DNA from: Microbotryum violaceum | Taxonomy: Eukaryota | Length of the DNA stretch: 64,000 nucleotides | Assembly (NCBI GenBank): GCA_001244265.2 | Contig: CDLV01000010.1 | Coordinates: 558,001 to 622,000, forward strand | Direction of reading: 5' to 3' | Shown: piece after piece, positions 1-24,143 of the stretch | Layout: each line of letters starts with the position of its first letter | How positions within the stretch are numbered: the first letter of the stretch is position 1 | Translations under genes and position numbers: made by a program | The notes under the pieces: model-generated | What the model was told of the DNA's origin: nothing | The model's database searches: none | The model's input: the letters and a program-made list of their open reading frames with translations, nothing else

Positions 1-1882
1 TCGAGAAGGAGAGTGAGATGACTTCCCGCGTCTGCTGAACGTCTTGATGGCATGAACCCGTGTTGCGCCGGCGGCAAAAGCTCGCCGAGCACCCCATTGA
101 GTCGCGCCACCAAGACCTTGCTGAGGACCTTGTAGGTCGTCTCGCGCAGTGTGATCGGTCGATATGCCCCCAGTGATTTCAGATTGGCCCCCGGTTTGTT
201 CTTGGGCAAAAGCCGCACCAGCCCCTCTGCCAAGGACGCCGTCATTTTACCTCCCTCCCAAATCGAGTTGAACAAATCCAACAGCTTGGGAGCAAAGTAG
301 GTTGGCAGCGCCTTGAAGAGCTCGTACGGAATGCCCGAGGGCCCCGGTGATCGCCCCGAATCCGTCTTCTTCAACGCCGCTTCAACCTCGAGGAGGGTGA
401 AGGGCTCATCAAGCGCCACTCTCGCTTGACGAGGCAGCCGACGACCGAACGTAGGGTCCGAGCGGTCGTCATCGTAGCATTTCGCCGCGCGAATAGGGTC
501 GAGCAGGGACCGACGTGGGTTCGTCGGGTCGCCATGAGCTGGGTCCGGCGTGAAGAGCGACTGTGCGTGCCGTGAAGCAATACCCAGCGCCTCCTGCATG
601 TCAACGGTCTCGGTGCCATCCACATCCTCCAGCGAGACGATGCTCGTCTGGCGACTCCGGCGGTTGAGACGCGTGCGAATGCTTGCCGATTGACCTTCCC
701 TCGAGTCGACTGACGGCACATGCGCACGAATGCGCAGCCACTGAGCCTCCTTTACCGCCAACTGATCCAACTGCGACTTGGCGAGAGCATACGCATCGCG
801 CTCGGCCTCATTCATATGCTCACCGCGTGCCTCCAGCGCCTCCATGACGGATTGGTTCTCGGCCCGCAGTCGGCGCATGTCGGCACGAGTCGAGCGGTAT
901 CGTGCATGGCCAGCGACTGCAACCGCCCGCAGAGCGGCGTCATAGACGTCGCCGAGCGGAGCGGTCCCCTCGAGCCTTCGATAGACCTCGTCGACGACCC
1001 CGGGAATCGATGCGACAAAGTCTTGATCGTCAAAGACCGTTGGGTTGAGCCTCGAAATGAAATCGCTCGTAGAGGGAAGAGAAAGGGGGGTTCGGCATCA
1101 GCGTTCGACGTAGGCAATGCGAAAGTCGCAACTACAGGTCTGTGGTCCGAACAGGGCGCGTCGAAGAGCGTAGAAGCGCCCAACAACCGGTTTGCCCAAC
1201 TGCATTGGACAAGAATATAGTCGATCCGCGACCACGAGCAAATCTTTCGCTCCTCCCCTCTACCACGGTAGTGAGGACGAGTGAATGCGGGGGTGCAAGA
1301 ATGGACATGTCGGACCGTGTCGAGTGCCTTGAACGCGATCTTTGACAGTAAGGTCTGCCAGTGCGATACAGGAGTCCAAGCGCGATCGGTGATGGACACT
1401 CGGTCGACCGATACATCCGGACAATCATTGAGATCGCCGGCCAAGATCCGAAGAGTCTTGGGTCTCGGGGCGTTGAAATGCAGGAGCCCGAAAAAGTCGC
1501 GACGATCGTCCTCCTGTACCGGCGCGTACATGTTGATGATCTCAACATCGAGCTCCTCAAGACGAAACACCGAGCGCAGAATCCGACCGTCGAGACGAGG
1601 AGCTCCTGCAAAGACGACCGGGGTAGAGGAAAGGAGATGGCCCGCCAAAGGTGAGCCATCGGGTATGAGGGTAAGGACATGAGGAGTGAAACGAATACAA
1701 GCCCCTGGCCAAGCACTCTCGAAGCCTTCGCGCGACGCGTTGTAGCTGAGGTGGTGCTCTTGCAGGAGAATGGCCGCAGGGGCCGGCCGAAGGGTTTTGA
1801 GATAGCGGATGATTTTGACTTGGTTGACTGCGTTCTTGATCGATCGGACGTTGAACGTTAACACGGTGAGGGACTCAATCAT
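1..1882 (-). pseudogene. LINE A ORF2: AP-endonuclease plus N-terminal reverse transcriptase, several frameshifts
   Basis: TFNVRS, LLQEHH, NMYAP, AGDLND, SRIDY, SDHRPV (APE); SPGPSGIPYE and [22 protein letters not shown]...QHGF (RT) at 1-360. Confidence 0.9.
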
Positions 1883-3556
1883 GAATAAATTGGATCAGCG
1901 CCGCCCCCTCGAATTCGGTCATCTCGGACCTGTGACCCCCTGAGCCGTCACCCCCTGATGCACCGAGGATCATGGCGGATCCCGCCCGGGTGACACGTCG
2001 GTTGCCGGGTGCCGAGCTCGAACGAAGGCGTCGAGGACTCGTCGAGGCTATCGAGGTCGTCGAGGTTGCCGATGATTCCGACGTGCCACCGGACAAAGGC
2101 GATGCCGGAGCAGAAGCAGAAGGCGAAGGAGAGGTCGGGGTCGAAACGGGCGCCGCTGTCGTCGTCTGCGTCTCCTTTGTTGGGCCCGTGGTCGCACGGG
2201 TCAACGTCTCTTTCCCAGTGTCGCCGCCCTCCGGTTCGGTCGAAGCGACCGATTCGCCGCCGCCGTCGTCGTCGTCGTCGCCGTCGTCGTCGTTCGCATC
2301 GTCCTTGTTGCCGGTCGCTGCACCTGCGGGTTAGCACGAGGTCCCAGCTGGATCATGTTCGTGCCAGAGGCACGAGAGTTCAATGCGGCAGGCCCACCGT
2401 GCTTCCCATTCTTCCCAGCAACTCGGAAGCCGGTGGTCGAAGTCGAAGTCGAGGCCCCCGGAACAGGGGCGGCGGTGGCCGGAGTCGAAACCGGCTTCCT
2501 GCAAGCGCCCCACTGGTGTCCGGCGCGATCGCACACGGCGCAGTAGTGCGTCTCGAATTCGTGTCGCAAGCCGTACTTGGCGCCCAGGATCTCGATCTCT
2601 TGTGGCAAGGCGGCGTTGAGCGCAGCCTTCTGCGTCTCGGTAGAGCCTTGGAAAAGATCAGCATGTAAGCGAAGGTACGCGCAGTGGAACCCGTCTTCGG
2701 TCATGGCCATCGGATCTCCATTCGGATCGACCGCGAGGCCCCGCTGTAATTGCATCAGGGTATAACCTTGCGTACGACCTGCGCGGCCGAACGAAAGGGT
2801 GAGAGCATCATCGAGAGATTGTCGGAGCACGGAAGCGGGGGTGGCGCTGGAGGAGGAGGGCAACGTGAATCGCACCTGAACGACGTGGTTAAGGGGAGAG
2901 GCGCTGGGGAGCTCGGTAACCATCTCCTTGCCGTGGTGAGAGAATGGGCCCGCTGCAGCGGCTTCGAGACAGGCTTGGTCGGATTCGAATACAAGCTCGT
3001 ACATGTGACGAGCGATCGGGAACCTCTTCGTGGCTTTTGTCACAATCGGGTTCAGCTTCACGCATTTCGAGAAAAGCTTCTCAACCTCGGGGTCAAGCAC
3101 GACGCCCTCGGGCCGCGCGAACATGAACGGGGTCTCGGCCAATCCAAAGTGCTTGCGTAGCGCGATCTGTACAGGACCTCTGGGTGATCCAGGACCATCC
3201 ATAATGACTCGGATCACATTGGAGGCCGGGGCTGCGTCGTTTCGCACCGCTCTTTGGGCGGCTCGTGCGAGCAGTGGCGCCTGCGAAGGCGGGGTCGAGG
3301 CATCGTGCATCAGGACCATCAGTCGGCGGGTCGACTTGCCGGAGGGAACGATCCCGAGTACTCTGAAGGTGTTTTGCATCACCTTTTCGCAGTCCAGTCG
3401 AGCCTGAGTTGCCTCAGTGGACCACGCTGGAGGATTCGCGGTTCCTCCAGTGACCGGTTCACGCGTTAGCGTGTTGAGTGATTCGTCGTCACTCGCGCGG
3501 TTACCGCCCAACGGGTTGTCGGGCGGTGGCGCTTGGGCGCCGGGCGGATCCGACAT
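1875..3556 (-). CDS. LINE A ORF1 (gag-like, zinc knuckle); frameshifted near 2200-2340
   Basis: 451-aa ORF with CAVCDRAGHQWGAC (CX2CX4HX4C); low-complexity tail in other frames ends at 1875, overlapping the ORF2 ATG at 1882. Confidence 0.82.
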
Positions 3557-3632
3557 CGCTTGTTCGTGTTGACCTGTAACACTTAAGGGGGTACGAGGTC
3601 AACTACACACGCTACACCGCAAAAACTCACTT

Positions 3633-3656
3633 GTGTGTGTGTGTGTGTGTGTGTGT

Positions 3657-3745
<89 letters not shown>
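3633..3745. repeat. (GT)n/(CA)n microsatellite at the 5' end of LINE A
   Basis: About 113 nt of GT repeats with two GG interruptions. Confidence 0.98.
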
Positions 3746-3746
<1 letters not shown>

Positions 3747-3753
3747 ACACAAA

Positions 3754-6700
3754 TTTTTTTTTTGTATGAAACTCATCGCTAATTTGCAAGACGAGAAAAC
3801 CCCCTACGGAACTAAAGGAGATGCTACCCAGCATGCACGATGATGACCACAACCGCCGCTTGATGCGTTGTAACTAGCAGAACAGACCAACCCGATACAT
3901 CCGAGTTCAAGTCCCCCCACCCACGGTTGCTCCCTCCCAGAGACGAATGAAAGGAAGGTTGAAGATTATACACAAGGAATCGGGAAAAGATGGATGAGTC
4001 GTTGGTGATGGTACATGTGTTGTACAGGCGAATCCGATTATAGTCGTACAGTTGAACCTTCTTCGATCTTTTGACTTCAGCCCCCCCTGAGACCGCCATA
4101 CTCCTTGAAGCCCCTTAATTCTTTGAGACGCGTCGAACAAGGCCTCCGATGGCACAAACATCCCGCTCAATCCAAATGATTCACGTGGTCCAAAGGGGGA
4201 ATGTAACCCCCTGCGACCGCAGCAATCACATACCCCTTGTACCCGTCTGCGCTGGATCTCCACCGCGGAGTCCAACCCCCTTTTCGGTTACCAAAGTCTG
4301 CCCCCCTCGCGACCGCACGACCCCAGATCACCCCCATTCGAATGACTGCAACTGCGAAACAGGCCTACTTCGCACAAAAACACACAATCCAGAGATTTCC
4401 GGGGAAAGTCACGGAGCATGTGACAGTCCATTGGACACGCCTCGGTCGGGTGCAGCGCGGGCGGGTGGCCGTCAACACCGGCGCGCGGCTGGAGACAAGG
4501 GCGGGGTATACCTTCCGCAGGGGCCTCGCTTCCCTGCGGCGTACTCCCAATCTCGGAACGCACACTCGAGTCCCCTTGTACGTGCAGGTGGTTCCCAATC
4601 ACCGCAGATACTGGGGAAAGAAGGAGCATGAGGCCCACGACGGTGATGTCATTGGGTGGGACCTCGCTCGAGTGTGGATGTGTATGGCGGTTCGGTACCC
4701 GAGTCACCCGCCGCGCGGCCGCGACTCCGAGCGAGCAGCAAAGCAAGGAGAGGCGAGCCACGCAGGCAGTTTGTGCCGGCCTTGAACAGGAGATCACGGA
4801 GTCGCTCGACCGAAAGAGAAGACAGACCCGGCCCTTGAGAGGAGTGGAAAACTCACGGCATAGTCCAGGAGAGGGCCAAGGGGATCCGTTTTCGCTGTGT
4901 GTCATCGTGATGTGGCAGAAGCTCGAACCAAGGGCGACAATGCCCGCCGGCGCAAAGAACCCGAGGCTCCTGGGGAGTACGGAAGCCTATGAGGAGGAAT
5001 GGCAAAAAGAGCGAGAGAAAACAGGTTCAGTATTCTGGCGTGTTTGGGAGACATTTTGGAGATTGAGAAGGAGGGAAAAGGGACTTGTGATTTTTTGGGG
5101 GTTTGGTTTTTGCTTGGATAGGGAGGGAGCGCCATCTACTTCATCGCGCCAATCTGAGCTCCAACCTCTCCTTCAGTCCCGCCATCTCCTTGTCCATGCT
5201 CGACATCGCTCTGGCGTGGCGATGGAGATCCCAGCGTCGGTTGCTGAGAGTGTCGAGCGCCAGCGCAATGAAGGCGCGGATTGGACGCTTTTTCGACGTC
5301 GGAAGGCGAGCGCGCAGTCGAGGGAGGCCGTGCTCGATCTGAAGTGCCGTGTAGTCGAGGTCGAAGATCGACACGACCCCCAGCGCGTCGCAGATAATGG
5401 ACCTAGCTGCTTGCCAAAATTGAGAAGAGTCAGGGCAATCATGCCAAAAGTGAGTAAAGTCATCCTCCACCCCTGCCAGGCTGCATGCCTGCACAAGGCA
5501 GCAGGCCGAGTCGCCATGCCGCTGCACAAACTGGCGCTTCCGCGTTGGCGTGAAGTGGTACGCCAGCTTGAAGTGCACCTCGCGCTCGCGGGCCGTGGCG
5601 GGCCTGGTGTGGAACCACCCCCAGAAGAGTCGCCTTTCTTTGGATGTGGCGAGTGATCCAGGGCGTTGTGTGTCGTCGAAACGTCGATGGTTGATGACGC
5701 GTCGAAGTCGCGCAATGGTGTAGGGTCTGTCCAAGCTCAACATTCTCCACTGATTAGCAAGCAAGGGGCGGAGGGGAGGGGAAGTCTTTGATCAGGCATG
5801 CCGACCGGAGTCGCTCTGGGCAAGATGTGCTCGAGGGGACCGCCGGGCCGGGCTCCAGGTGCTCCAACGACACGAATGACGGGTGGTCGACGTGCGAGGA
5901 CGGGAACAGGAGGCGGAAGCGGCGGGATGAAGCGATCGCCTGCGACCTGGATCCACGCCTGGACTTGATCGCGCTTCCATTGCCAAAGGTTGGACAGCTC
6001 CGAGCCGTCGCCTTGGGGATGCTTCTCAGGGGTCCAGGGCACCGTTGGAGCTGCGGGGTATTGAGCTCGAGCATAGATGTCAGCGATGGTGCGTTCGAAA
6101 ATGAAATGCTTCGCCAAACGCTTATCCTGCTCCGAGAACGCCCGCGAGTCATGCAGACCCGGTTGGAGGGGGAAAGAGAAAGAAGATTGGAGACCGAAAG
6201 TTTGGCAGGATCGACGACGGCAGGGTAGCGTTCAGCGACCGAGAGCACCGCTCGCCAGCGGGGATGTAGCTCCCGGGGTGCGTCGGCGTTCCTCCACGTC
6301 CACAGATCCGCAGCAAAGTCAAAGGTCGGAAGCGCTCGCCGGATGGAACTCCGAGCCAGATCGCCCCAAATCGCAGTTGACCCGCCGGCCAGCACATCCC
6401 AGATCCGTACCGAGACTGAATCCACCACATCCTGGATGCTCACGACGCTGAGACCGCCTCGCGCCCGTGCCGTGAAGACGACTGATTGCTTGTAGTCGCT
6501 GCGCCGCGGGCCTCCCTTCACAAAGTCAGCAAGCTTGCGCTCGATCGACTTGATCACGTCGGATGGCGGGATGTCGGCGGAGAGAGAGTGCAGCACCTTG
6601 GAGATGCCGTAGCGGTTAAGATAGAAAGCCCGGGTATGGTGCGTCATCCATCGGTCGCGCACCGATAGAATCACTCGATCAACCCATCGCTCAAGATCAT

Positions 6701-7491
6701 GGAATCCCAGCCTGTTGTTGCCGTCAGGCGCAAACTGGAGACCGATCCAGGGAAGAGACTCGTCCGGTGCCACGAACGACAGTTTGGACAAGTCCGCGCG
6801 ATCCCACAACGTCGCGCCCAATGGCATCACCACAGTTTTGTCGGTGTTTAGACGTCCGTTCGTCGCGAGTCGCCAATCCCGAGCTAACGCCTCGAGCGAA
6901 GCAATAGCTTCCGGCCCAGCAACAGCGACGACGGCGTCATCCGCGAACGCCAAATTGGTGATGCATCGAGTCTGCGGACGATGAGCCAGCTCCGGAAGAG
7001 TGATAGTCAGCGCAATGTTGCGTCGACTGAGAGAATCAAGGAAGGGTTGGAATACCACATCCCAGACAGAAGAAGAGAGAGGATCGCCCTGGCCAAGACC
7101 GCACAGGAGTCGCACCGTCTCGGTGAGGAAACCGTTGACAATGTACCGCGCTGTGGACGTCTCGCCGTTGTAGAGCATCCGCAAGACGCGCTGGAAAGGT
7201 TCCGGCGCGCCGAGAGCCTCAAACACCGCAAAGACCCAGTCGTGCTCGACCATGTCGTAAGCCGAGCTCTGATCCAGGGAGAGGAGCGCTGCTGTCGGGA
7301 ACTCTGCCCCACGACCCCTAATCTCATCGATCAGGAGCCGCAGATGCAAAGCCGCGTCCGCTGGTCTTCGCCCCTTGACGAACCCATGCTGTCCGGCCGG
7401 AAGAACATCGGGGAGGATCCGGTTCAGACGAGCCACGTAGACCTTGGTGAAGATCTTGTAGTCGCATTCCCGCAAGGTGATCGGACGACAC
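3754..7491 (-). mobile_element. LINE family C, 5'-truncated inside RT; about 1.4-kb 3' UTR and poly(A)
   Basis: RT motifs [28 protein letters not shown] (5754-7475); C-terminal CLVQAC...HFWHDC finger (5141-5764); T10 tract at 3754-3763. Confidence 0.93.
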
Positions 7492-9266
7492 TTTTTTTTT
7501 TTTTTTGTAGAAAACGTTCATCATATTGCCCCCAGTTCCTGTTCCCCCTGTTTTGGCCTACGGAAAAACTAGATGGAAGACTACGATGATAACACAAACC
7601 GCCCGCAAAAGTGCGAGAAACGAGCCAAGTCCACCAATCCGAGATTCGGATTCAAATGCCCTAGCCAAGCGGTTGCTCCCCCCCGGAGACTAATGAGAGA
7701 GAGAAAGAGAGATGAAGAGAAAAAGAAAGAAAAGAAATGTACTAACGACAGAAGGCCCACCCCACAGCCACTTCCCACTCGGTCGAGACGAAGACAAGAG
7801 CACGACTGCGCAACCACCACGACCCTCGACGCTCCAAGTCTCTGCTCAGTCACAACAAGACGCGGTGAAGGTCCCTCAAAACCTCCCCCATCGGCAGTCC
7901 CTGGCCCCTCAAAGCCGACTTTCTGCCTGTGTCCGCTGATCCCTCCCTTGACTCAGAACCCCGAAGCCGAAGAGCGCGAGCCACACCGAGTCGACGCCAA
8001 ATCGCGAGATGGTCCATGATCCGCAACGATGAACCTGTAACAAATGAAAGATGAACGCGATCTATTTAGTGTACAGTAGGAGAAAATGATGTCACGAGAA
8101 TTTGGTGTGTGTGTGTGTGTAGTGGTGGTGGGGGGAAAGTCGAACCCAGCCTCTACTGCCCTCTCCTCCCCAAGCTCCTCCCGCCCTCAGCTTCAACCTC
8201 TCCTCCAAGATGATCCTCCTCCTCCCAACACCCTCCATCCTCGTCCCCCACTTCTGCATCCCCCACCTCCCGCTGCTGATCATCTCCAAGACCAGCCCGG
8301 TGAATATTTCGATCGTCCTCCCCGCTCCTTCTTGATCGCGTAGACTGGCCTTGAGCTTCGGAAGTCCGAACATGCGTTGAACAGCCGTGTAATGCGTGTT
8401 GTCGATCGTGTCGAGCCCCAGTGCGTCGCAGAGCACGCTCCTTGCCGCGATCCAAACGTTCCCAGAGTCAACGCAGTCGAAAAAGTAGTGGTCGGTGTCG
8501 TCCACCGGCGCTTCGCAGACGAGGCACGCGGAGAAGTGTCGTGATTCTGTTGGTGTTGCAGCTTGCGCGTCGGGGTGAAGCGGAGAATCAGCTTGAACCA
8601 AACTTCCCTCTCCCTCGCCGTCAGTGCCTTCGAGTTGACCGCCTTCCAAAAGCTCCTGAGGTCGTCCGGCTGCGGTGGTCCCTTGAGCCCGAGCGTGTTG
8701 GTAAAGGCCTTCGCGTTCAGGACCCGGCGGATGCGACGGATGGTGTACGGTCGAGCCATGTTCAGCAGCTTGTACTGGCTCGCCTGCTGTGGAAGCACCG
8801 GGTCCGGAAGGCGCTGCTCCATTGCGAAGCGGGCCACGGGCTTGGGGAGAATCGCCTCGAGTGGTGCGCTGGTGCCGATCCGGGGAGGCACGTTGAGCCG
8901 TCCTGCCGCCACCGCCACCGCCAAGGGCGTGTTCTTGTGTCGATCGACAGTGAACCGGTACCAGGCCGCGATTGCCAGTCGCTGCGGGAGCCTGCGTCGA
9001 TCGTACTCGCTGTTGTCGCCGAGCACATCCGCCGGCGGCGTCCAAAGGTGAAACCCCCCACCCGCATACAACTCGCGCCGGTAAAGATCCGCCACCTTCG
9101 GGTAGCCCTGGAGACGAAGGTAGTCAGGTATATGAACCGCGTCGATGGTCTGTCTCCCTCTGATGGGGGTGTGGAGGCTGCCGAGCAAGGTGGGAAGCGC
9201 GAGCAGGTTCGCGGTGGTCAAGGTCCTCGGGTTGACCTGCGCGTCTTGCTGTTTCGGAACCCCCAA
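7492..9266 (-). mobile_element. LINE family B, 5'-truncated copy (3' about 1.8 kb)
   Basis: Near-identical to 11016-12791; T15 tract at 7492-7506; ORF2 C-terminus with CLVC...HYFFDC. Confidence 0.95.
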
Positions 9267-9295
9267 TTTTTTTTTTTTGTAGAAAACGTTCATCA
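9267..9295 (-). mobile_element. LINE family B micro-copy: poly(A) plus last 17 nt only
   Basis: T12 followed by GTAGAAAACGTTCATCA, identical to the B 3' terminus at 7507 and 11030. Confidence 0.9.
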
Positions 9296-10628
9296 TTTTT
9301 TTTTTTTTGTATGAAACTCATCGCTAATTTGCAAGACGAGAAAACCCCCTACGGAACTAAAGGAGATGCTACCCAGTATGCACGATGATGACCACAACCG
9401 CCGCTTGATGCGTTGTAACTAGCAGAACAGACCAACCCGATACATCCGAGTTCAAGTCCCCCCACCCACGGTTGCTCCCTCCCAGAGACGAATGAAAGGA
9501 AGATTGAAGATTATACACAAGGAATCGGGAAAAGATGGATGAGTCGTTGGTGATGGTACATGTGTTGTACAGGCGAATCCGATTATAGTTGTACAGTTGA
9601 ACCTTCTTCGATCTTTTGACTTCAGCCCCCCCTGAGACCGCCATACTCCTTGAAGCCCCTTAATTCTTTGAGACGCGTCGAACAAGGCCTCCGATGGCAC
9701 AAACATCCCGCTCAATCCAAATGATTCACGTGGTCCAAAAGGGGGAATGTAACCCCCTGCGACCGCAGCAATCACATACCCCTTGTACCCGTCTGCGCTG
9801 GATCTCCACCGCGGAGTCCAACCCCCTTTTCGGTTACCAAAGTCTGCCCCCCTCGCGACCGCACGACCCCAGATCACCCCCATTCGAATGACTGCAACTG
9901 CGAAACAGGCCTACTTCGCACAAAAACACACAATCCAGAGATTTCCGGGGAAAGTCACGGAGCATGTGACAGTCCATTGGACACGCCTCGGTCGGGTGCA
10001 GCGCGGGCGGGTGGCCGTCAACACCGGCGCGCGGCTGGAGACAAGGGCGGGGTATACCTTCCGCAGGGGCCTCGCTTCCCTGCGGCGTACTCCCAATCTC
10101 GGAACGCACACTCGAGTCCCCTTGTACGTGCAGGTGGTTCCCAATCACCGCAGATACTGGGGAAAGAAGGAGCATGAGGCCCACGACGGTGATGTCATTG
10201 GGTGGGACCTCGCTCGAGTGTGGATGTGTATGGCGGTTCGGTACCCGAGTCACCCGCCGCGCGGCCGCGACTCCGAGCGAGCAGCAAAGCAAGGAGAGGC
10301 GAGCCACGCAGGCAGTTTGTGCCGGCCTTGAACAGGAGATCACGGAGTCGCTCGACCGAAAGAGAAGACAGACCCGGCCCTTGAGAGGAGTGGAAAACTC
10401 ACGGCGTAGTCCAGGAGAGGGCCGAGGGGATCCGCTTTCGCTGTGTGTCATCGTGATGTGGCAGAAGCTCGAACCAAGGGCGACGATGCTTGCCGGCGCA
10501 AAGAACCCGAGGCTCCTGGGGAGTACGGAAGCCTATGAGGAGGAATGGCAAAAAGAGCGAGAGAAAACAGGTTCAGTATTCTGGCGTGTTTGGGAGACAT
10601 TTTGGAGATTGAGAAGGAGGGAAAAGGG
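9296..10628 (-). mobile_element. LINE family C, 5'-truncated copy (3' UTR only)
   Basis: T13 tract, then sequence near-identical to 3764-5082. Confidence 0.95.
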
Positions 10629-11015
10629 CTTATTTTCTATTAACTACTCCTTTTTAGTTTTCCTTTAAGCGCGCTTATAAAAAAGGGCTGTTTTTGTAAA
10701 AGCCAAATAAAAACAAGCAAAAATAAGGGGGCGACGAAAAGGAAAAGGGGCAACAGAAAATTCTACATCGGTAACCTAAACCACGTATAACTAGCTATAT
10801 TATATAATCCTCTTATATGATTTAATATGTACTGAGCTGTTAAGGGGAAATGAACAAATTAATAACATAGTATTATGAAACCCATCGTTGTGGAAGCTGT
10901 TTCTTGTCGTTTTTGTGTTTTGTCTTTTTTGCTTTAGCAAAAAGCAGACTAAAAAGAGAAATATCTTTCATGACTAGATGCGCAAGTTTAACTCTCCCCT
11001 TTAGAAAATGTCATA
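10629..11015. other. AT-rich non-LINE segment inside the array, with hairpin motifs
   Basis: Abrupt compositional shift; GGGCTGTTTTTGT and GTCTTTTTTGCT/AGCAAAAAGCAGAC motifs resemble those in 20099-20688. Confidence 0.6.
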
Positions 11016-11674
11016 TTTTTTTTTTTTTTGTAGAAAACGTTCATCATATTGCCCCCAGTTCCTGTTCCCCCTGTTTTGGCCTACGGAAAAACTAGATGGA
11101 AGACTACGATGATAACACAAACCGCCCGCAAAAGTGCGAGAAACGAGCCAAGTCCACCAATCCGAGATTCGGATTCAAATGCCCTAGCCAAGCGGTTGCT
11201 CCCCCCCCGGAGACTAATGAGAGAGAGAAAGAGAGATGAAGAGAAAAAGAAAGAAAAGAAATGTACTAACGACAGAAGGCCCACCCCACAGCCACTTCCC
11301 ACTCGGTCGAGACGAAGACAAGAGCACGACTGCGCAACCACCACGACCCTCGACGCTCCAAGTCTCTGCTCAGTCACAACAAGACGCGGTGAAGGTCCCT
11401 CAAAACCTCCCCCATCGGCAGTCCCTGGCCCCTCAAAGCCGACTTTCTGCCTGTGTCCGCTGATCCCTCCCTTGACTCAGAACCCCGAAGCCGAAGAGCG
11501 CGAGCCACACCGAGTCGACGCCAAATCGCGAGATGGTCCATGATCCGCAACGATGAACCTGTAACAAATGAAAGATGAAAGCGATCTATTTAGTGTACAG
11601 TAGGAGAAAATGATGTCACGAGAATTTGGTGTGTGTGTGTGTAGTGGTGGTGGGGGGAAAGTCGAACCCAGCCT

Positions 11675-14600
11675 CTACTGCCCTCTCCTCCCCCAAGCTC
11701 CTCCCGCCCTCAGCTTCAACCTCTCCTCCAAGATGATCCTCCTCCTCCCAACACCCTCCATCCTCGTCCCCCACTTTTGCATCCCCCACCTCCCGCTGCT
11801 GATCATCTCCAAGACCAGCCCGGTGAATATTTCGATCGTCCTCCCGCGCTCCTTCTTGATCGCGTAGACTGGCCTTGAGCTTCGGAAGTCCGAACATGCG
11901 TTGAACAGCCGTGTAATGCGTGTTGTCGATCGTGTCGAGCCCCAGTGCGTCGCAGAGCACGCTCCTTGCCGCGATCCAAACGTTCCCAGAGTCAACGCAG
12001 TCGAAAAAGTAGTGGTCGGTGTCGTCCACCGGCGCTTCGCAGACGAGGCACGCGGGAGAAGTGTCGTGATTCTGTTGGTGTTGCAGCTTGCGCGTCGGGG
12101 TGAAGCGGAGAATCAGCTTGAACCAAACTTCCCTCTCCCTCGCCGTCAGTGCCTTCGAGTTGACCGCCTTCCAAAAGCTCCTGAGGTCGTCCGGCTGCGG
12201 TGGTCCCTTGAGCCCGAGCGTGTTGGTAAAGGCCTTCGCGTTCAGGACCCGGCGGATGCGACGGATGGTGTACGGTCGAGCCATGTTCAGCAGCTTGTAC
12301 TGGCTCGCCTGCTGTGGAAGCACCGGGTCCGGAAGGCGCTGCTCCATTGCGAAGCGGGCCACGGGCTTGGGGAGAATCGCCTCGAGTGGTGCGCTGGTGC
12401 CGATCCGGGGAGGCACGTTGAGCCGTCCTGCCGCCACCGCCACCGCCAAGGGCGTGTTCTTGTGTCGATCGACAGTGAACCGGTACCAGGCCGCGATTGC
12501 CAGTCGCTGCGGGAGCCTGCGTCGATCGTACTCGCTGTTGTCGCCGAGCACATCCGCCGGCGGCGTCCAAAGGTGAAACCCCCCACCCGCATACAACTCG
12601 CGCCGGTAAAGATCCGCCACCTTCGGGTAGCCCTGGAGACGAAGGTAGTCAGGTAGATGAACCGCGTCGATGGTCTGTCTCCCTCTGATGGGGGTGTGGA
12701 GGCTGCCGAGCAAGGTGGGAAGCGCGAGCAGGTTCGCGGTGGTCAAGGTCCTCGGGTTGACCTGCGCGTCTTGCTGTTTCGGAACCCCCAAAGCTGCTCG
12801 CCATCGGGGATGGAGGTCGCTGGGGATGGGAGTGGATGGATGTGGCCAGAGATCGGTGGCCAGGTCGAGGTCGGACTGAGCTCGCTGGAGTGCCGCGCGC
12901 GCAAGTCCTTGCCAGATCGCGCCCGAACCGCCGAGAAGAACGTCCCAGATCCGTGCCGCAACCGCGTCCACGACGTCCTGCATCCTGATCACCCGAGTCC
13001 CCCCTTGAGCTTGGCTGTGAACACGATATCTCTGCCGTAGCTGGTCCTGCCCTTGCCCCCACGGACGAAATCGACGAGCATGTCATCGAGCTTTTTGACG
13101 ACTTCGGGCGGCGGGATGTCGGCTGCAAGGAAGTGCAGGATCTTGGGGATGGCGTACCGATTGACGTAAAAGGCACGGGTGTGGTGTGTGAGCCAGCGAT
13201 GCTGAACCCCTTCCAGCGTCGCCTCGAGGCGTTCGATGAGATTCGCGTAGGCGAGTTCGGTGTCGCCGCTCGGGTCGAAGGGGAGGCCGATCCACTCGAG
13301 CGACTCGCCTGCGGCCTTGACGACGAGCGGGCGTTGCCCCGGGTCCCAGCGGCGTCCGATCGGTAGGACGACCGTCTTGTCCGTGTTGAGCCGGCCATTC
13401 GTTGCATGCCTCCAGTCGAGCGCCAGGTCATCGAGCAAGTTGAGTGACCCCAAGCTCGCGACGGCGACGACAACGTCATCGGCAAAAGCAAGCGATGTAA
13501 TGGCGCGGCTCTGTGGGTACGGATGAAGTGCAGGTATGGAGAGATTCAGCGCGATGTTTCGACGGTGTAGAGCATCCAGAAACGGCTGAAACACGATGTC
13601 CCAGACCGACGACGACGCCGGGTCCCCTTGGCCGAGCCCACACGTCAGTCGTACCGGCGCCGTCAAGAACCCATTGATGATGTAGCGGGCCGAGGTCGAG
13701 TCACCCGAGTAGAGCATCCTCAGCACGCGAAGAAAGGTGGCAGGAGCGCCCAGAGCGTCAAAGATGGCAAAGATCCAGTCATGCTCGACGAGGTCGTAGG
13801 CGGACGATTGGTCAAGAGATAAGAGTGCGGCCGCGGGGAACTCGGTCCTGCGCGCGCCAACTTCCTCGATCAGGAGACGAAGGTGTAGTGCAGCGTCAGC
13901 CGATCGGCGGTCCTTGACGAATCCGTGCTGCTGCGGCGGGAGGAGATCGGGTAGAATCTGGTTCAAACGGGCGACATAGACCTTGGTAAAGATCTTGTAA
14001 TCGCACTCGCGCAGGGTGATCGGCCGGTACGACGAAAGTTCGGCGCGATCGGCATTCTTCTTGTGTCGCTTGAAGATGAGGCGCACGAGTCCTTGGCCCT
14101 GCTTGGGAGAGAGTGAGCCTCGCTCTATCATCGTGTTGTAGGCCTTGGTCAGCACCTTGGCCCACGCCTTGGGTGCGGTCTGGTAGAGTTCGTAGGGCAC
14201 GCCCGACGGTCCCGGCGATCGCCCCGGGTGCGTCGTCCCGATCGCGGCCACGACCTCGTCCTCGGTGATTGGTCGCTGGAGTAAGTCGATCTGCGATTCC
14301 GAGAGTCGGCGCAGAAAGAGAGGATCCGAGCGCGGGTCGTCGCAAGTCCGCGCCGCCCTGATTGGCGCGAGGAATTCGTCCCGAAGTCGGTCGACGCGGT
14401 CCGGGTCACGAGGCTCGATGCGGTAGAGGCGCTGGAAATGCGCCTGCGTGTGGTCAAGAGCGACATCAATGTCATGCGTTAGCTCTCCGTTGCTCAAGCG
14501 CAGTGCTGTGATCTTGGAGTCCGAGTTCCGCGCCGCGAGCTTGGCGTGGACCGGCCGCGACAGTTGTTCCTCGGAGGCGATCTCGGGTACGTGGGCTCGG

Positions 14601-15693
14601 ATCCGGAGTAGGCGCGCGCGCTCCTCGACCGCCCGCTTGAGTTCCTCGGACGTCCTTGTCCATTCTGCCGTTTCCGCCTCCCCCATTCCGGTATCGCCTC
14701 CAGATCCTGCACCCTCCCCACCAAATACTCCATCCGTTCCGTCCGCTCCCGATGCAGCCTCCTCGCCATCTCCCCACCCCTATCCCTGCACGCCTTCAGA
14801 ATGACCTCGAGCTCCCCCACCGGTTCCTCCCCGCTTGCCCCTTCCAACCATCCTTCCATCATCCGCTGGAATTCCACCGTCTTAAAGGTTGTGGTGTTGA
14901 TTCGATGTAGTTGGTTTGATGTGGTAGGTAGGCTGAGCTGTGGGAGGGTCGCATCAGGATCGTCTGAGAGAGCCAGCACAATCAAGACCGGTCGGTGATC
15001 GGAAAGCTCCTTGGGATAGTCGTAGATCGTCGAGGCCTGATCGAGTCTTTTTTGGTGTGTCCGTTGCAGGAGAAAGTAGTCAAGCCGGGAGAAGGAGTTG
15101 GGTCGCTTGCGATTGGGATTAGGTCGAGTGAAGGATGGGGTGATGGGGTGTTTGTAGCGGATGCAGTCCGTGTAGGCCGAGTCGAGCTTGCCGATCAGGA
15201 TTGGCCAGTGGTGGCCGCGCCGACTTTGGTTCCGCCGATCGACTTCTGGGCGCGGGCAGTCGTTGAGATCACCGCCAAGGAGTCGGAGGTGGGATTTCTG
15301 TGTTTTGTGAAATAAGAGTTTGTCAAAGAATTTCGCTCGTTGCTTTGGGTCAACGGGCGCGTAAACGTTGTTGATTTCTAGAATTTTGATGTCGCCCCGC
15401 AGTCGAAAGGACGTGACGAGGAGCCGGCCGTCGAGTGCCGAGTGGGTGCGCAAGAGCTCGGCGTCGATCAGGGGGGAGTCAGCCGGAATTAGAGTCAGGC
15501 AATGTTGGTTGATGAAGAGCTTGCCCTCGTACTCGTCCTTGATGAGTTGCCAGAGGTGCGGTCTGATGAAGTGCTCTTGTATGAGAATGGCCGATGCTTT
15601 GAAAAGGGATAGGTAGTCGTAAATGTCACGTCGTTTCTCCGGGACCCCCATGCCCCTCCTCACGTTCCAGGTGATGATGGTGTGCTTAATCAT
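11675..15693 (-). CDS. LINE B ORF2 (APE endonuclease, RT, C-terminal CCHC finger); short frameshifts near 14686, 12990 and 11845
   Basis: [81 protein letters not shown]. Confidence 0.93.
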
Positions 15694-17942
15694 TAATGGG
15701 TAGTTGAGGTCGAAGCGCTCTTGGCGGTGGTGACGTCCTCAAAGAGGGGGAGGGCGGGCAGGACATCGTCCTCGGGCTCGTGGTCGGACCATCTTTTCTC
15801 CTCGGCTACCCCCTTTGCTTTCCCTCGGTCCACTTTCGTCACGCCAACCGGCATCGCCGCCGCCGCTGACATCGACCTCGTCACCCTCCGCCCCTCTGTT
15901 CCATCCTTGACAACGACGCGGCTCTTCCCTTTGATGATCACTCGCTTGGCGTCGGTCGGTTCGTCACTCGGGTCACTGAGGTCCGCCGCAGTCTGCGACC
16001 TCTTCATTACCGGCTTTTTGAACTTCGAAGCGGTCCCCCTGATATTGATGGAACGTATCTCACCGTCCTCATCCCACGTGGCAAAGTTGTGACGCACCAA
16101 AGGGGTTTCAGCGTCGAGCCTCCTCTCGATGCTTTGGTCCCGCTCGAGTCGTGCCTGCTCAACCCAGTTAGCTCTGATCCTGTCCCACTCCTCCCCCTCG
16201 CGAAGCGACTTGGCAAGAGTTTCGGGTGACAAAGGTGGGGTTGGTTCGTGGGGTGTCGTTTCGCGGGAAGCGGTGGCGGCGGTTGCGGTTGCGTCGCTGT
16301 CGTCGTCATTGTCCAGCCTGTTCGTCTCCCCTAAGTCCGTCGCTTCCGCGTTCTCCGCTTTCGTCGCTCCCCCTGCCTCGTCCACATCGTCCACCTCCGT
16401 CGCCACCTCCCTTTCCTCCATCTCCGTCGCCACCTTGCCTTCTGTTTCGCCCCTTCCATCCGCCATCACCTCATCCTCATCAATCACCTCTCCATCGGAT
16501 CCTCCGCAGTCCACTAAAACCGACTCGTCCTCGCTCTTAAGTTTGATGACCTCCGTTTTCACGGTCGCCTCTGATTCCATCTCCGAGTCCTCCGAGTCCT
16601 CGTCATCCGCCTTATCACCAGCGTCCTCCTCCCCCGATTCCTCTGGCCCCTGTCCGCTCTGGCCAGTTACCGCTTCCTCCTGTCCCTCCTCAACCTCGAG
16701 CCCGGCGAAGCGATTCTGTGATGCGATCCTGTTAACAACCGGCACAGGAATGGGGGCCTCGGCCTCCGCAATGTTGGTGTCGTTGGTGATGGTGTTCTTG
16801 TTGGCGTTGGTGTTGCCGTTGCCGTTGCCGTTGTGAGCCTCCTTTCGCTTGCTCTCCTGATCCAGTCCGCAGGTTCCCACGTGACCAACGAAGTGGCACC
16901 TACCGCAAGCCGCCTCCTTCTCATAGTCATGGCGAAGGGCGGTGACCGGGATGCCTCGAGTGGGAAGGCCGATTCTCGAAGGTAGGATCTCTTTCAAGGT
17001 CGTGTTAGGGCGTTTGAACAGGGAGTCGTCATCGAAGTGTAGGAAAGCTGAGTAGTCTCCGGCAACGTGGGCAAAGGCCGAGGCGTTGTCCACGCTGATA
17101 ATGCGCAGAACCTGCACAAGTTGGCACGAATGTCCCTTGCCTGACAAGTCCTGCACTAGTAATTGGAACGATTTGATGATGGCATCCATGGAAGGCACTC
17201 CTTGAACACCGACGTTGATTCGAAGCTCGACCATGTTATGGTGGAACCTGTGAGATTTCGCGAAGCGGGCCTTCGCCGATCGCCAAGTGAGAGCAGGGGG
17301 CGTCGTAAGCGCAGCGTCACGTGCCTCGCCGGTGACGAACCCAACGGTAACGCGATGGTGAGCCGCCCCATTACGCAGGATTGATGAATGTTGTACGCCT
17401 AGGATCTGTGGTCGATAGGCTGCAAGGTGGTCCGGCAGAGGAACTCCAGGCTCAAAGCAGATAGGAGAGATCGGCGATAACAGCCTCGTGACGCAGGCCA
17501 CGAGATCGGTCTTGTCGGCATGAGACGCTCGCGAGGCGCTCTGGTGAGACAGAGTCACTTCAAGGGCGTAATCAAAGATGTTCTCGACAGACCGGTTCGC
17601 GTTCAAGGCCGAGAATTTCAGCGATGTGGCGGTGGCGACGGGGTAGAGTTCGGCGAAGTAGATGGCCTGGACCCAACGATCCATGCGGTTTCCGGGTACA
17701 GCACCCATGGCTTGTAGGAGGCTGCCCAAAGCCTTGGCACGCTGTTGTTGTTGTTGCTGTTGTTCAGGTGACTGAGTCACCTGACTCGCAGCGGCGGCAT
17801 AGTTGGGTGCGGCGGTGGCGGGGCCCGTGGCTTGCGTCTTCTTCGAGCTTATCGGGATCTGGTCGCGAGGTGGCTGGACGCTGGTGGCGGACACCGGTGG
17901 TGGCGGTGCCAGCGGTGGGGACCCAGGGTCTCCTGTAGACAT
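15693..17942 (-). CDS. LINE B ORF1 (749 aa, gag-like with zinc knuckle and acidic tail)
   Basis: Intact [16 protein letters not shown]; stop overlaps the ORF2 start as TAATG. Confidence 0.9.
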
Positions 17943-17998
17943 CTTGTCGGTGTATCACTTGTTAACTCGAGTATCGAAGACTGCGGTAGGGCGATTTC

Positions 17999-18078
17999 GA
18001 AGTGAAGTGAAGTGAAGTGAAGTGAAGTGAAGTGAAGTGAAGTGAAGTGAAGTGAAGTGAAGTGAAGTGAAGTGAAGT
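17999..18078. repeat. (GAAGT)16 / (CTTCA)n pentanucleotide tract at the 5' end of LINE B
   Basis: 16 perfect units. Confidence 0.98.
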
Positions 18079-18144
18079 TAGCGGACCCCCAAACAAATGT
18101 TAATATATTTGCATGTTGGCTAGGCATTCATATTAACGTCCGCT

Positions 18145-18262
18145 GCCCGGATGGTCTAGTGGTATGATTCGCCCTTAGGGAACTGAGCATCTTCACGCCT
18201 TGCTGGCGCACTGGGTGTATCTACTTTGGGCGAGGTCCCCGGTTCAATCCCGGGTTCGGGCC
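18145..18262 (+). tRNA. tRNA-Pro(AGG) with 46-nt intron (18181-18226)
   Basis: Acceptor GCCCGGA/TTCGGGC; A-box TGGTCTAGTGG; anticodon stem CGCCC/GGGCG with TT-AGG-G; T arm CCCGG-TTCAATC-CCGGG; intron at the canonical 37/38 position. Confidence 0.95.
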
Positions 18263-18278
18263 GGTATATCGGGTTCAC

Positions 18279-18283
18279 TTTTT
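18279..18283 (+). terminator. Pol III oligo-T terminator
   Basis: TTTTT beginning 17 nt after the tRNA end. Confidence 0.75.
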
Positions 18284-20078
18284 CTTGCCGCATTGTAGTC
18301 AGAGAAGTATTGCTCCCTTTTTTTCGTGCTACCTTTTTATGCCTGTATCAACAGATTATGTCTCTTTTTAGCGAGGCAGAAAAACTGGGATTGCAAGAAA
18401 GGGGATCAAAAACTAATTATCCACGGCCAAGTCCGTACCCGTCGCAGCGAATGTAAAAGCAAAGCAAGGGATGCACAACACACAGAGACACCCAAGTGGA
18501 CATCGAGGGAATTCAGGCAAAATTGACTTGCACCAAGAAGGGCTGCAACATTTCGCGCTTCGCCGTCTTGAGAGGGGCCCTTTGGATTGCAGCAGCGTCG
18601 ACGGCGGTTAGGGTCGGTTTCGGAGCAAGCCGGTTTACTTTCGGGAAGCAAAAGAGCTCACCTCTTCCCGTTCGTGATGGAGGCTCGAAGCAAGGTTTTG
18701 TTACGGTACTATCGGTGGACAAAACCGCCCCAAGGTTAGATTAGACGGACACGTGCGCTCTCGACATGTCAAAGGCTGACCATGGGCACGTTGGTCAAGC
18801 TCCCACCGCTCCTCATGACGGAAAGAAGCTCGGCGATGTTGACGTTGACCGTCCTCAACACCTTCTTGCACGAGGTGATGGTGTTGGGAAGACTGTGGAC
18901 CGGCTTGAGCTCTAGAGGGGAGATGCAAGGTTTCTCAGCATACGACTTCAATGCAGACACAGATCAAACTTACGCCACTGCAAGATGAACGACTGGTAAA
19001 AGATAACCTTTTCCGAGGAAGTCGACGTGAAAAATCGGTCCGGATTCGACAGCAGATCGGCCGTGTACGAGTCGGCGTAGGAAGAGTTGACCTCGCTCGA
19101 CTTCAAAGTCCAAATGTGGGCCTTGGGCGATAAGCATGCGCACCGCATCGCCCGGGGCGGGTTAGGCCGAACATTAGCCATGTATGAGATCGAGGATGGA
19201 GAGCAGGACCTACCGACGAGACTGATTCTACTCCAGCGCGCGATTTCGCTTCAGGTGGATGCTACAGGACTTGCAGAGTGCAGACCGAGTGCGAGGCAGA
19301 ATCGTCCCTCAAGTCAGCAATCCGGACCCGAGCGCTCGCTTGGGGCGTGCCAGCTGCTCTGGGAGGATGGCTTTGGTCTTACCTCACGATGGGTCAAGGA
19401 TTCAGCAGCAGCACGTAGACGAGGGGCCGCGTCAAGGTCGAGATGAAGTCGAGCCAGCGCATCCGAAAGCTGTTGACGACTGGAGGGGACGGCGGTTCGA
19501 CTCGACAAGGCGCTCAACGCCGAAATGGGGCGCTCAATCGGTTCCACACCGGCTCCACTGGCAGAGGTGGCAGCACCGTGCGGCCTGCGGCGACGGGTGC
19601 GACAGTCGAACGAGGACGACGCCTCAGACCCTTGGCTACTGTGGCCGCTGTCACTGCTCCTGGATGACGACGACATGGCTCTTGGCGCCAGTGGGTGCGA
19701 GACGCGAACGAACGCTGATCGCCGGTGTGCCTGACTTGGATGTGGGGGGGAGAGCAAGACAGAGCTGAGGGTAAGGGCGCTCGGGTAGCCACGCGTATGC
19801 GAACACTGGATCGCGGATGTGGGGAGGTAGGCGCACCCTACTCTATGTGGGCTCGGACTCACAGCTGATTAACCTGTTTAGAGGGATGAGACTAGAGAGT
19901 GGTATATGTAAAGCGAGTGGTAAGAATGGGAGAGGAGGAGAACAAAGTGGTCGGCCCTCGGGGGGGTTAACTGCCAACTGCCGGCGCCGCCGAGGAGGAT
20001 TGCAGCTGCACAGGCCTCAGGCACAGGCTCGGCTGCACTTTGCCCGTCGAGCGCCCGGTCGTGGACTGGCGACGCGGG

Positions 20079-20708
20079 TGTTGGTCCGAACCCCCATCAA
20101 AAAAAGGAGCTGGGCTGTTTTTGTCGTTTTTGTACAAAAAAGACAAAAAGGAAAAGAAAAAGAAAAAGAAGGGCATGAAAAACAACTAGCTTTTTACCTT
20201 TCCTTTATTTTTAAAAAGAAAGGCGTAAAAAAGGGAAAGGGGGGGGAGTGAAACATAAACAAAAAGAAGGGCAAAATAAAGGGAATCCCATTAGACCATG
20301 ACCCATTACTTCTCTAGCACCTGCCGGGTCCCTTTTACAAGCGGCGATAATCTGCTTTTTGTTTTATTTTCGAGACGGGCTGTTTTTGTCTCCTTTTTTT
20401 TGCGAGCAAAAAAAAAGACAAAAATCTCTCAAAAAAAAAAACAGGCAGGTACATTTAAGAAACTGCTCATCAATAGACGCATGCGATTATCAGAGACCGT
20501 GCAAGGACAAAAAAGGGTGAAAATTGTAACAAGACTAAAATCTGCCAAATCTAGGAATCGCACCTAGGACAATTGTTTACAAGACAGTCATTTTACTACT
20601 AAACTAATCTGACCAGAAAGGTTAACCATTCCATATCATTTTACTCCCGACATGGGGCGTACTTTCTTTCTTTCATTGCTAGCTTTTATGTTGGTCCGAA
20701 CCCCCATC
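20079..20708. mobile_element. AT-rich about 590-bp insertion flanked by a perfect 20-bp direct repeat
   Basis: TGTTGGTCCGAACCCCCATC at 20079-20098 and 20689-20708; two internal TTTTTGTC...GACAAAAA hairpins. Confidence 0.7.
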
Positions 20709-21468
20709 GAACGAGGTTTTGGGGAAGAGGAACCGGGCGGAATGCAGGATGGCTCGTGGGGAGCTCGCTTGTTTCGAGACCAGGTCGCAGCGAAACAAGT
20801 CGTAGCGGTTGAGGATCGGAATGATGGCGTCGCAAATGGAGCGAATCGGGTCAAGTTCGGCGCCTTCAAGCTTGTTCAACCAACGTCGCCTATCCGAGTC
20901 GAGGCTCGACTCCGAGTCGATGCAGGACCGTCGTGGCGTGTTCGTAACCGTCGATCTAAGTAGCGAATTGGAAGACTCACAGATCCAAATTTTCGAGCTT
21001 CGCCGGACGGTAACCTTTGTTACCGGTTGGCAGGTAGTCGCATCCCATCATCAACCCCACAACGAACCAGGCTCAGCTTCCTTTAAGTTCGCACCGGGCA
21101 GCTTTCCCTGACGTTCGAGCATTTCGAGGTCGACGACTCGAGTAACGCGAAGCTTGACGAAGGAAGCTGATCGGTATCTTACACGTTCGCTGCCGATCAT
21201 CATGAACAAGCTGGAATCCCTGCTGCCTAAGACGGTACGCTCGGCTTGAATGCGACTCCGCCGATGACCCCGAGTCGGGTGCTTGCCGCGATCAGGGGGT
21301 CGGCTTCGTACGCCGAAATGACGACGGTGGTCTCCGAGGATATGTCGAGGACTTGTCCCACTACGGTGAGCTCGCGTTGACCACCGAAGTCCGTGACACA
21401 TTTGTCAAGGATAGCTTGCTTCACCGTCCTCATCCGATTGCAACATCTAAGTTACATCTAAGTTAGTT

Positions 21469-23587: not shown

Positions 23588-24143
23588 TACCATAATAGGA
23601 ACGATAATCAGATGAAGGACGGGACAGCCCATATGACCATATACGAATGAGAAGACTCGAGGATGGAGATGATCGTGAGGCAGTAGTGGGGATGTGTCAC
23701 GGTGGCTCGCTGCGTTTGCTTTTTTCTCTTTTTCTCACGTGCACGCATCAGGCCGCGTTCAGCACAGCGTCTCCGTCTGGTGTCTTCTTCTTTGTTATTT
23801 CCATTGTAAGGGTAGAACAGAGTCCGAGGAGTAACCTTACTGGACTGCCGATGAACGGGCAAAAATCATATAACTCCCTGATTGTAGAAGTAGAAGTTGG
23901 CAAGCCTCTCCCTTTGGAATGTCGAGTGCTCGGGAGACAACGGTTCGAGCGAGTCGCCAGTTTTCAGCTTTTCAGTCATAGCTACCAGCTAGTCCTTTTC
24001 AAAGAAAGAATCTGACAAACGCTAGATCCGCTCATCCTAGGCTAAGCGTAGGTACCGCCGTGTCCTATCGAGACTGTTAATACATGTATTGCAAGAGACT
24101 GCTGATGAACACCGGTCATGATCTCAAGAGACCCCTCCCTACC

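Follow-up and report, generated by a model that had tools for sequence, protein, structure and literature searches.

We have analysed a 64,000-nucleotide stretch of the genome of the basidiomycete fungus Microbotryum violaceum (assembly GCA_001244265.2, contig CDLV01000010.1, positions 558,001 to 622,000), hereafter called the window, with coordinates counted from its first nucleotide. It begins with an array of long interspersed nuclear elements (LINEs) that stops just short of a gene for tRNA-Pro(AGG). The array occupies positions 1-18078 and comprises six copies from three families, all on the minus strand, arranged head-to-tail and ending in poly(A), in the order A, C, B, B-micro, C and full B. 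The two copies of family C are termed C1 and C2, and the truncated B copy that follows C1 is termed B2.

A first-pass annotation of the sequence had proposed these six copies, their three families, their order and their common strand, and all of this is borne out by self-BLASTN, Pfam and TBLASTN. Self-BLASTN pairs 3754-5082 with 9299-10628 at 99.2% identity (C1 and C2), and 7493-9266 with 11016-12791 at 99.5% identity (B2 and full B). Pfam matches are found in seven of the 14 long open reading frames (ORFs), corresponding to the apurinic endonuclease (APE) in two, the reverse transcriptase (RT) domain RVT_1 in three and zf-RVT in two, throughout on the minus strand and in the order of L1 elements. 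When the four ORF proteins of family B were compared with the window by TBLASTN the matches were confined to 3-17954, and the remaining 46 kb gave no match to them. By the same method family A is 44% identical to family B in the RT and 37% in the APE, while for family C the RT is 64% identical to that of B. One correction to that first description is that 387 bp of AT-rich non-LINE filler (10629-11015) lie between full B and C2.

At the protein level A, C1 and B share 97-99.8% identity with other copies in the database, and on this basis the three families look young. The five internal tails are of A10 to A15 in the sense of the LINEs, and therefore appear as T-runs of 10-15 on the plus strand.

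The tRNA-Pro(AGG) gene lies at 18145-18262 on the plus strand, and contains a 46-nt intron. It was found by ARAGORN with introns allowed, and was missed both by ARAGORN with default settings and by Rfam. By ARAGORN the gene looks intact; a T5 terminator is present on its 3' side at 18279-18283, and motifs resembling the A and B boxes can be read by eye. On the plus strand the 5' end of full B carries a (GAAGT)16 repeat, delimited with Tandem Repeats Finder (TRF), that stops at 18078, leaving 66 bp to the start of the tRNA. The last LINE 5' end thus faces the tRNA gene as first described.

Nested target-site duplications beside the tRNA gene

We searched for target-site duplications (TSDs) by taking the 30 nt beyond every one of the five tails and comparing them with the spacer of 66 bp. 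Next to the tail of B-micro stands the octamer TTGGGGGT, with which B2 begins and which agrees with sequence internal to B. The same octamer occurs again in the spacer, providing an 8-bp TSD that flanks the unit 9267-18084. The 5 nt that follow the tail of C1 are TTTGT, and these also recur in the spacer (18097-18093), providing a 5-bp TSD that flanks the unit 3754-9266. The spacer-side copies of the two TSDs are adjacent to each other, together making up 18085-18097.

When 9267-18084 is deleted together with one copy of the 8-mer, the 5' end of B2 comes to adjoin the spacer, and the junction matches B-internal sequence. If 3754-9266 and one copy of the 5-mer are then deleted, the spacer becomes joined to TTTGTGTG(CA)n-A. 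Because the two TSD pairs are nested, they indicate that A was first, truncated B2 second and full B last. On insertion, both B units entered at the tRNA-proximal edge of what was already there. Alternatively each unit could have arisen from a single read-through transcript, in which event the number of insertions would still be two.

An anchored match of 8 nt arises by chance in 0.37% of 20,000 random 66-mers drawn from other parts of the window; for 20,000 shuffled sequences the figure is 0.5%. The joint layout, with the 8- and 5-bp repeats adjacent, was found in none of 300,000 random 66-mers, using a criterion that was set after the pattern had been seen.

The TSDs define the positions of the first-strand nicks on the plus strand, at ACAAA/TGTT and CCCAA/ACAA (the slash marking the nick), which places them 47 and 52 bp before the tRNA begins. 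Neither site is an A/T tract. The corresponding 5' junctions lie 52 and 60-66 bp from the tRNA. At this locus the LINE copies with their tails, both pairs of TSDs, the order of insertion and the positions of the nicks are all directly visible. A comparison of full B with the AT-rich filler gave no significant TSD, as 26% of shuffled sequences scored equally; this fits with a later arrival of the filler.

Insertion into poly(A) tails

Three of the five tails lead straight into the next copy at its 5' end. Of the others, one is followed by filler that leads to C2, and one by 8 nt and then (CA)n. C1 (which extends from the tail of B2 to its own A10 tail), the filler together with C2, and B-micro each have A-runs on both sides. 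This is the result expected if these three had nested within the poly(A) tails of earlier copies. As the C copies are nested in poly(A), family C shows no tRNA-directed event here. Six A/T runs of 10 or more are present in the window, and five of these are LINE tails.

We compared positions 1-20000 of the window with short-read Logan contigs from four runs. The contigs contain at least five further junctions of a tail with a new copy, at other points of truncation. A tail of B is joined to C starting at 5246 or at 4361, or to B starting at 11330; a tail of C is joined to C starting at 5851, or, through 20 nt, to the last 100 bp of B. Given these additional junctions, nesting in tails is a general habit of families B and C. 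In the same contigs longer C copies extend beyond 7488 in all four runs, and C1 is therefore 5'-truncated.

The first-pass annotation had viewed the array as built by repeated insertion beside the tRNA gene. For B2 and full B that view is upheld at the tRNA-proximal edge, by the nested TSDs and by the nick positions, 47 and 52 bp away. The idea of six separate dockings from three families is not upheld, given that C1, C2 and B-micro lie between A-runs.

Features of the array

The features of the array and spacer are collected in Table 1.

Table 1. LINE copies, repeats and duplicated sequences between the left edge of the window and the tRNA-Pro(AGG) gene.
Feature	Position	Strand	Evidence
Family A LINE, 5' part, continuing past the left edge	1-3631	-	Pfam, TBLASTN, translation
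Family A ORF1, one CCHC knuckle	2201-3598	-	Translation
Family A APE	812-1894	-	Pfam, TBLASTN
Family A RT, start	3-1097	-	Pfam, TBLASTN
(TG)57 microsatellite (3632-3745) and cacacaaa (3746-3753), on the 5' side of A	3632-3753		TRF
One copy of the 5-bp TSD (TTTGT in LINE sense)	3749-3753		Tail/spacer comparison
C1, 5'-truncated family C: RT, C-terminal part, 3' untranslated region of ~1.4 kb, A10 tail	3754-7491	-	Pfam, self-BLASTN, TBLASTN
B2, 5'-truncated family B, A15 tail	7492-9266	-	Self-BLASTN to 11016-12791
First 8 nt of B2 (TTGGGGGT), one copy of the 8-bp TSD	9266-9259	-	Tail/spacer comparison
B-micro, last 17 nt of B with A12 tail, A-run on each side	9267-9295	-	Tail inspection
C2, 1.33-kb 3' fragment of family C, A13 tail	9296-10628	-	99.2% identity to 3754-5082
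AT-rich non-LINE filler, 387 bp, separating the B tail from C2	10629-11015		Contigs, Rfam
Full-length family B LINE, A14 tail	11016-18084	-	Pfam, TBLASTN, TRF
Full B ORF2, zf-RVT	11616-13082	-	Pfam
Full B ORF2, RT	12989-14779	-	Pfam
Full B ORF2, APE	14494-15738	-	Pfam
Full B ORF1, one CCHC knuckle	15693-17954	-	Translation
Full B 5' end: 56-nt leader, (ACTTC)16 at 17999-18078, then CCGCTA (6 extra nt) at 18079-18084	to 18084	-	TRF
Second copy of the 8-bp TSD (TTGGGGGT in LINE sense), relic of the original B2 5' end	18085-18092
Second copy of the 5-bp TSD (TTTGT in LINE sense)	18093-18097
Unique 47-bp spacer, TATA-like stretch at 18104-18110; presumed zone of Pol III initiation factors	18098-18144

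The filler gave no match in Rfam. Pieces of it have other neighbors in contigs of other runs, as loose ends at 10622, 10880/10881 and 10948/10949 show. The filler has the look of a patchwork picked up at the 5' junction of a LINE, and is possibly of organellar origin.

A microsatellite is present at the 5' end of each full-length element; that of A is (TG)3(CA)57, and that of B is (ACTTC)16. In run X9 a multi-copy contig of B extends 36 nt beyond 17992, which suggests that the (ACTTC)n repeat belongs to the 5' end of family B. The 3' untranslated region of family C is unusually long at ~1.4 kb (3765-5143), and contains an open frame of 232 codons on the minus strand (4288-4986) that has no match in Pfam. 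Where C1 and C2 are aligned (3754-5082 with 9299-10628) all nine substitutions are transitions, and there is one indel. Deamination resembling repeat-induced point mutation has been described for Microbotryum, and the transition-only pattern would fit with this.

With default settings, the sole find of ARAGORN and Rfam is an AT-rich sequence resembling tRNA-Thr(UGU) at 20543-20613 on the minus strand. It has a GC content of 37% and lies within an AT-rich island (20150-20640, 36-40% GC), with no LINE adjoining. The island with its tRNA looks like a fragment of mitochondrial DNA in the nucleus. An origin as a tRNA-like sequence borne by a long terminal repeat element seems unlikely, since the published account of Helenus elements reports none in Microbotryum (Kojima 2024, PMC10886601). 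Two pairs of inverted repeats occur in the gene-rich part of the window, 35336-35581 with 37340-37589 (93% identical), and 21466-21639 with 23405-23590 (73%).

Classification and relatives of the elements

In both A and B the APE (PF03372) is followed by the RT (PF00078) on the minus strand, the domain order of L1-type elements. The solved structure closest to the B RT is human LINE-1 ORF2p (E = 1e-23), with R2 giving a weaker match (E = 4e-16). Other hallmarks of L1 are present, namely the poly(A) tails, 5' truncation of C1, B2, B-micro and C2, and TSDs of 5 and 8 bp. The C-terminal zinc-binding domain PF13966 scored 26.6 bits, which is below the cutoff of 27.5, and the domain is precomputed on close homologues. 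L1-clade elements were already known in Microbotryum (Hood 2005, as cited in PMC3956500).

A single CCHC knuckle can be read by eye in ORF1 of A and in that of B. These ORF1 proteins match no Pfam family up to E = 5 and have no relative in the PDB, and the similarity of one to the other is not significant (E = 0.19). All 21 ORF1 homologues found come from Microbotryum. Relatives of the RT at 40-43% identity occur in Sporobolomyces and Rhodotorula.

We considered whether these might be sequence-specific elements of the Tx1 type, and rejected this. The same target sequence is not present on both sides of an insertion, microsatellites occur only 5' of A and B, and the elements lie beside the tRNA gene and not inside it. 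Targeting to microsatellites was discarded for a similar reason, as the repeats are found on one side only. The name 'Transposon TX1' on three distant matches is an automatic label of the source.

Quality of the assembly within the array

Among 12 indels listed between the window and the contigs, seven are single G or C bases that the contigs add. Each of the seven precedes a run of three to seven of the same base (1084, 3912, 4080, 4300, 5764, 6167 and 12991), and four coincide with frameshifts, at 1084 in A, at 5764 and 6167 in C1 and at 12991 in B. The assembly of the window therefore probably under-calls homopolymers inside repeats, creating false frameshifts.

This affects the reading of a gradient of intactness, in which the tRNA-proximal copy had been taken as the best preserved. 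Full B has two frameshifts in ORF2 over 7 kb, and A has one in 3.6 kb; those that were checked fall at G/C homopolymers, and the gradient is not upheld. Ranking the copies by age on frameshifts or private substitutions was rejected on similar grounds, as the checked indels sit at homopolymers and C1 and C2 have four and five private transitions, respectively.

Origin of the array

With moderate confidence we favor the view that the array results from integration anchored by the tRNA gene and RNA polymerase III (Pol III), by family B and possibly A, combined with nesting in poly(A). The two insertions were independent, their sites are separated by 5 bp, and both lie on the tRNA side of what was resident at the time; this calls for a local attractor. 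The nick sites are not A/T tracts, and nesting does not therefore explain the two B insertions. After B2 had inserted, the (CA)n repeat and A were 5.5 kb away, and the tRNA is the only neighbor common to both events. All six copies are minus-strand, opposite to the tRNA gene on the plus strand. The opposite orientation, the 5' end directed toward the tRNA and the distance of ~50-66 bp agree with the likeness to the TRE5 elements of Dictyostelium that had been drawn in the first-pass annotation. By analogy with TRE5-A, it would be the Pol III complex that attracts the elements, and ORF1 may be the part that reads it.

On this basis two modes of integration can be proposed. In the first, target-primed reverse transcription would begin from a nick on the tRNA-sense strand ~47-52 bp upstream of the tRNA-Pro gene, just outside the presumed TFIIIB zone. 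This would generate an element antisense to the tRNA with its 5' end toward it, and each newcomer would displace the older copies outward, giving A, then B2, then full B. In the second, T-runs opposite earlier tails would prime the insertion of C1 (on the B2 tail), and of the AT-rich filler with C2 and of B-micro (on the B tail). The sequence of events would then run as follows. With A resident, truncated B2 would insert and create the 5-bp TSD, and C1 would nest in its tail. Full B would subsequently insert 8 bp inside the 5' end of B2, creating the 8-bp TSD, and finally the filler with C2 and B-micro would nest in the B tail.

We also suggest, more tentatively, that A and B have independently evolved Pol III-anchored integration like that of TRE5, ~47-60 bp upstream of tRNA genes, keeping nesting as a second mode, and that most founder insertions genome-wide would lie at that distance.

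A number of observations weigh against anchoring by the tRNA gene. A single locus has been examined directly, with two events there. At 5 and 8 bp the TSDs are short, and they were found post hoc; the 5' junctions at 52 and 60-66 bp are slightly beyond the 47 ± 3 bp given for TRE5-A. Families B and C stack on tails elsewhere too. The ORF1 proteins have no detectable domain or solved relative. In the four runs no contig bridges the tRNA and the B 5' end and no joint skips a unit, so these give no comparison of empty and filled alleles; contigs of the tRNA-side flank start at 18233 in three runs and at 18114 in one. A scan of metagenomes based on an RT alignment gave 173 pattern matches and six confirmed loci, all of them truncated or distant copies. 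None of the six has a tRNA, and this holds also for two relatives (45-50% identical) whose upstream sequence covers 3 and 10 kb.

The insertions might instead reflect a local hot spot unrelated to Pol III, in which the L1-type endonuclease is drawn to the AT-rich DNA here, probably poor in nucleosomes, to (CA)n, or to the edge that a resident LINE presents at its 5' end. The tRNA gene would then be a bystander, or would only mark the limit of tolerated insertions. The GC content of 18000-18200 is 44.5%, compared with 55-60% around it, and the nick for B2 is 8 nt from the (TG)57 tract; moreover, Zorro3, found in Candida, integrates at poly-A tracts and favors promoter regions (PMC3956500). However, (CA)n was already distant when full B inserted 5 bp away from the first nick, neither the target of full B nor that of B2 is an A/T tract, and the geometry equals that of TRE5-A. 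We consider such a hot spot unlikely. Rather less probable still is an ordinary pile-up seeded by poly(A), of the kind formed by Zepp or Zorro3, from a founder that lay near the tRNA by chance and with TSD-like repeats that are coincidental. The tails that adjoin a 5' end, filler or microsatellite, the origin of most long A/T runs in the window as LINE tails and the head-to-tail junctions in the contigs are all what this would produce. Yet pure nesting makes full B the founder, while the 8-bp TSD places full B after B2, and the joint layout of the TSDs was absent from every control. In addition, 392 LINE copies have been reported in M. lychnidis-dioicae (PMC4469406), from which a rough estimate, not a computed value, would be far fewer than one chance adjacency to a tRNA per genome.

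It is very improbable that part of the array is an artefact of assembly, or arose by segmental duplication of repeats that are almost identical. In favor of this are the 99.2-99.5% identity of the repeats and the single-base differences of the homopolymer type between contigs and window, and no contig spans the junctions. But the repeat pairs differ in their offset (5545 and 3523 bp), and every junction is accounted for by a tail or a TSD, which a misjoin would not create.

Comparison with known systems

The closest parallel to the proposed integration is found in the dictyostelid amoebae. TRE5-A (DRE), the other dictyostelid TRE5 elements and NLTR-B share with the elements described here an L1-type arrangement of APE and RT with a zinc finger (putative in the Microbotryum elements), an oligo(A) tail, and a location upstream of a tRNA gene in opposite orientation with the 5' end facing it (PMC5391098, PMC5911963). 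TSDs, 5' truncation and extra 5' nucleotides are also shared with TRE5-A and NLTR-B (PMC5391098, PMC5911963). The 5' end of TRE5-A is always directed toward the tRNA, with a primary site ~47 bp upstream, just outside the range of TFIIIB, and its insertions have TSDs and extra 5' nucleotides (PMC5391098). TRE5 elements are found 44-54 bp and NLTR-B 39-64 bp upstream of tRNA genes (PMC5911963). The present case differs from TRE5-A in its basidiomycete host, in junctions at 52 and 60-66 bp, in the nesting of the same families in poly(A) tails and in an ORF1 that has a CCHC knuckle, with the likeness seen at a single locus.

In the table of a review the tRNA-targeted non-LTR elements are dictyostelid only, and the target specificity of fungal LINEs is described as not yet elucidated (PMC5911963). 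A search of the literature revealed no fungal case of a LINE targeted to tRNA genes. If our interpretation is correct, this would be the first tRNA-homing LINE outside the dictyostelid amoebae. A fungal example would show that a Pol III safe harbor for LINEs has arisen convergently in a compact genome. It would also provide a second system in which to see how a target-primed element reads a transcription complex, and would be relevant to site-directed gene insertion.

Nested insertion in itself is familiar from other LINEs. Zepp and Zepp-like L1 elements of green algae generate by this means arrays of a single orientation that are rich in 3' ends (PMC8226300, citing Higashiyama 1997). Clusters of Zepp mark centromeres or telomeres, whereas here there are two events beside a tRNA gene at targets that are not A-tracts. 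Zorro3 of Candida albicans is likewise a fungal LINE of the L1 clade, with an ORF1 of CCHC type, and integrates at poly-A tracts (PMC3956500). Zorro3 is bounded by poly-A on both sides and lacks a TSD; by contrast two of the insertions in the Microbotryum array have TSDs that are not A-runs, and occupy nearly the same place upstream of the tRNA gene.

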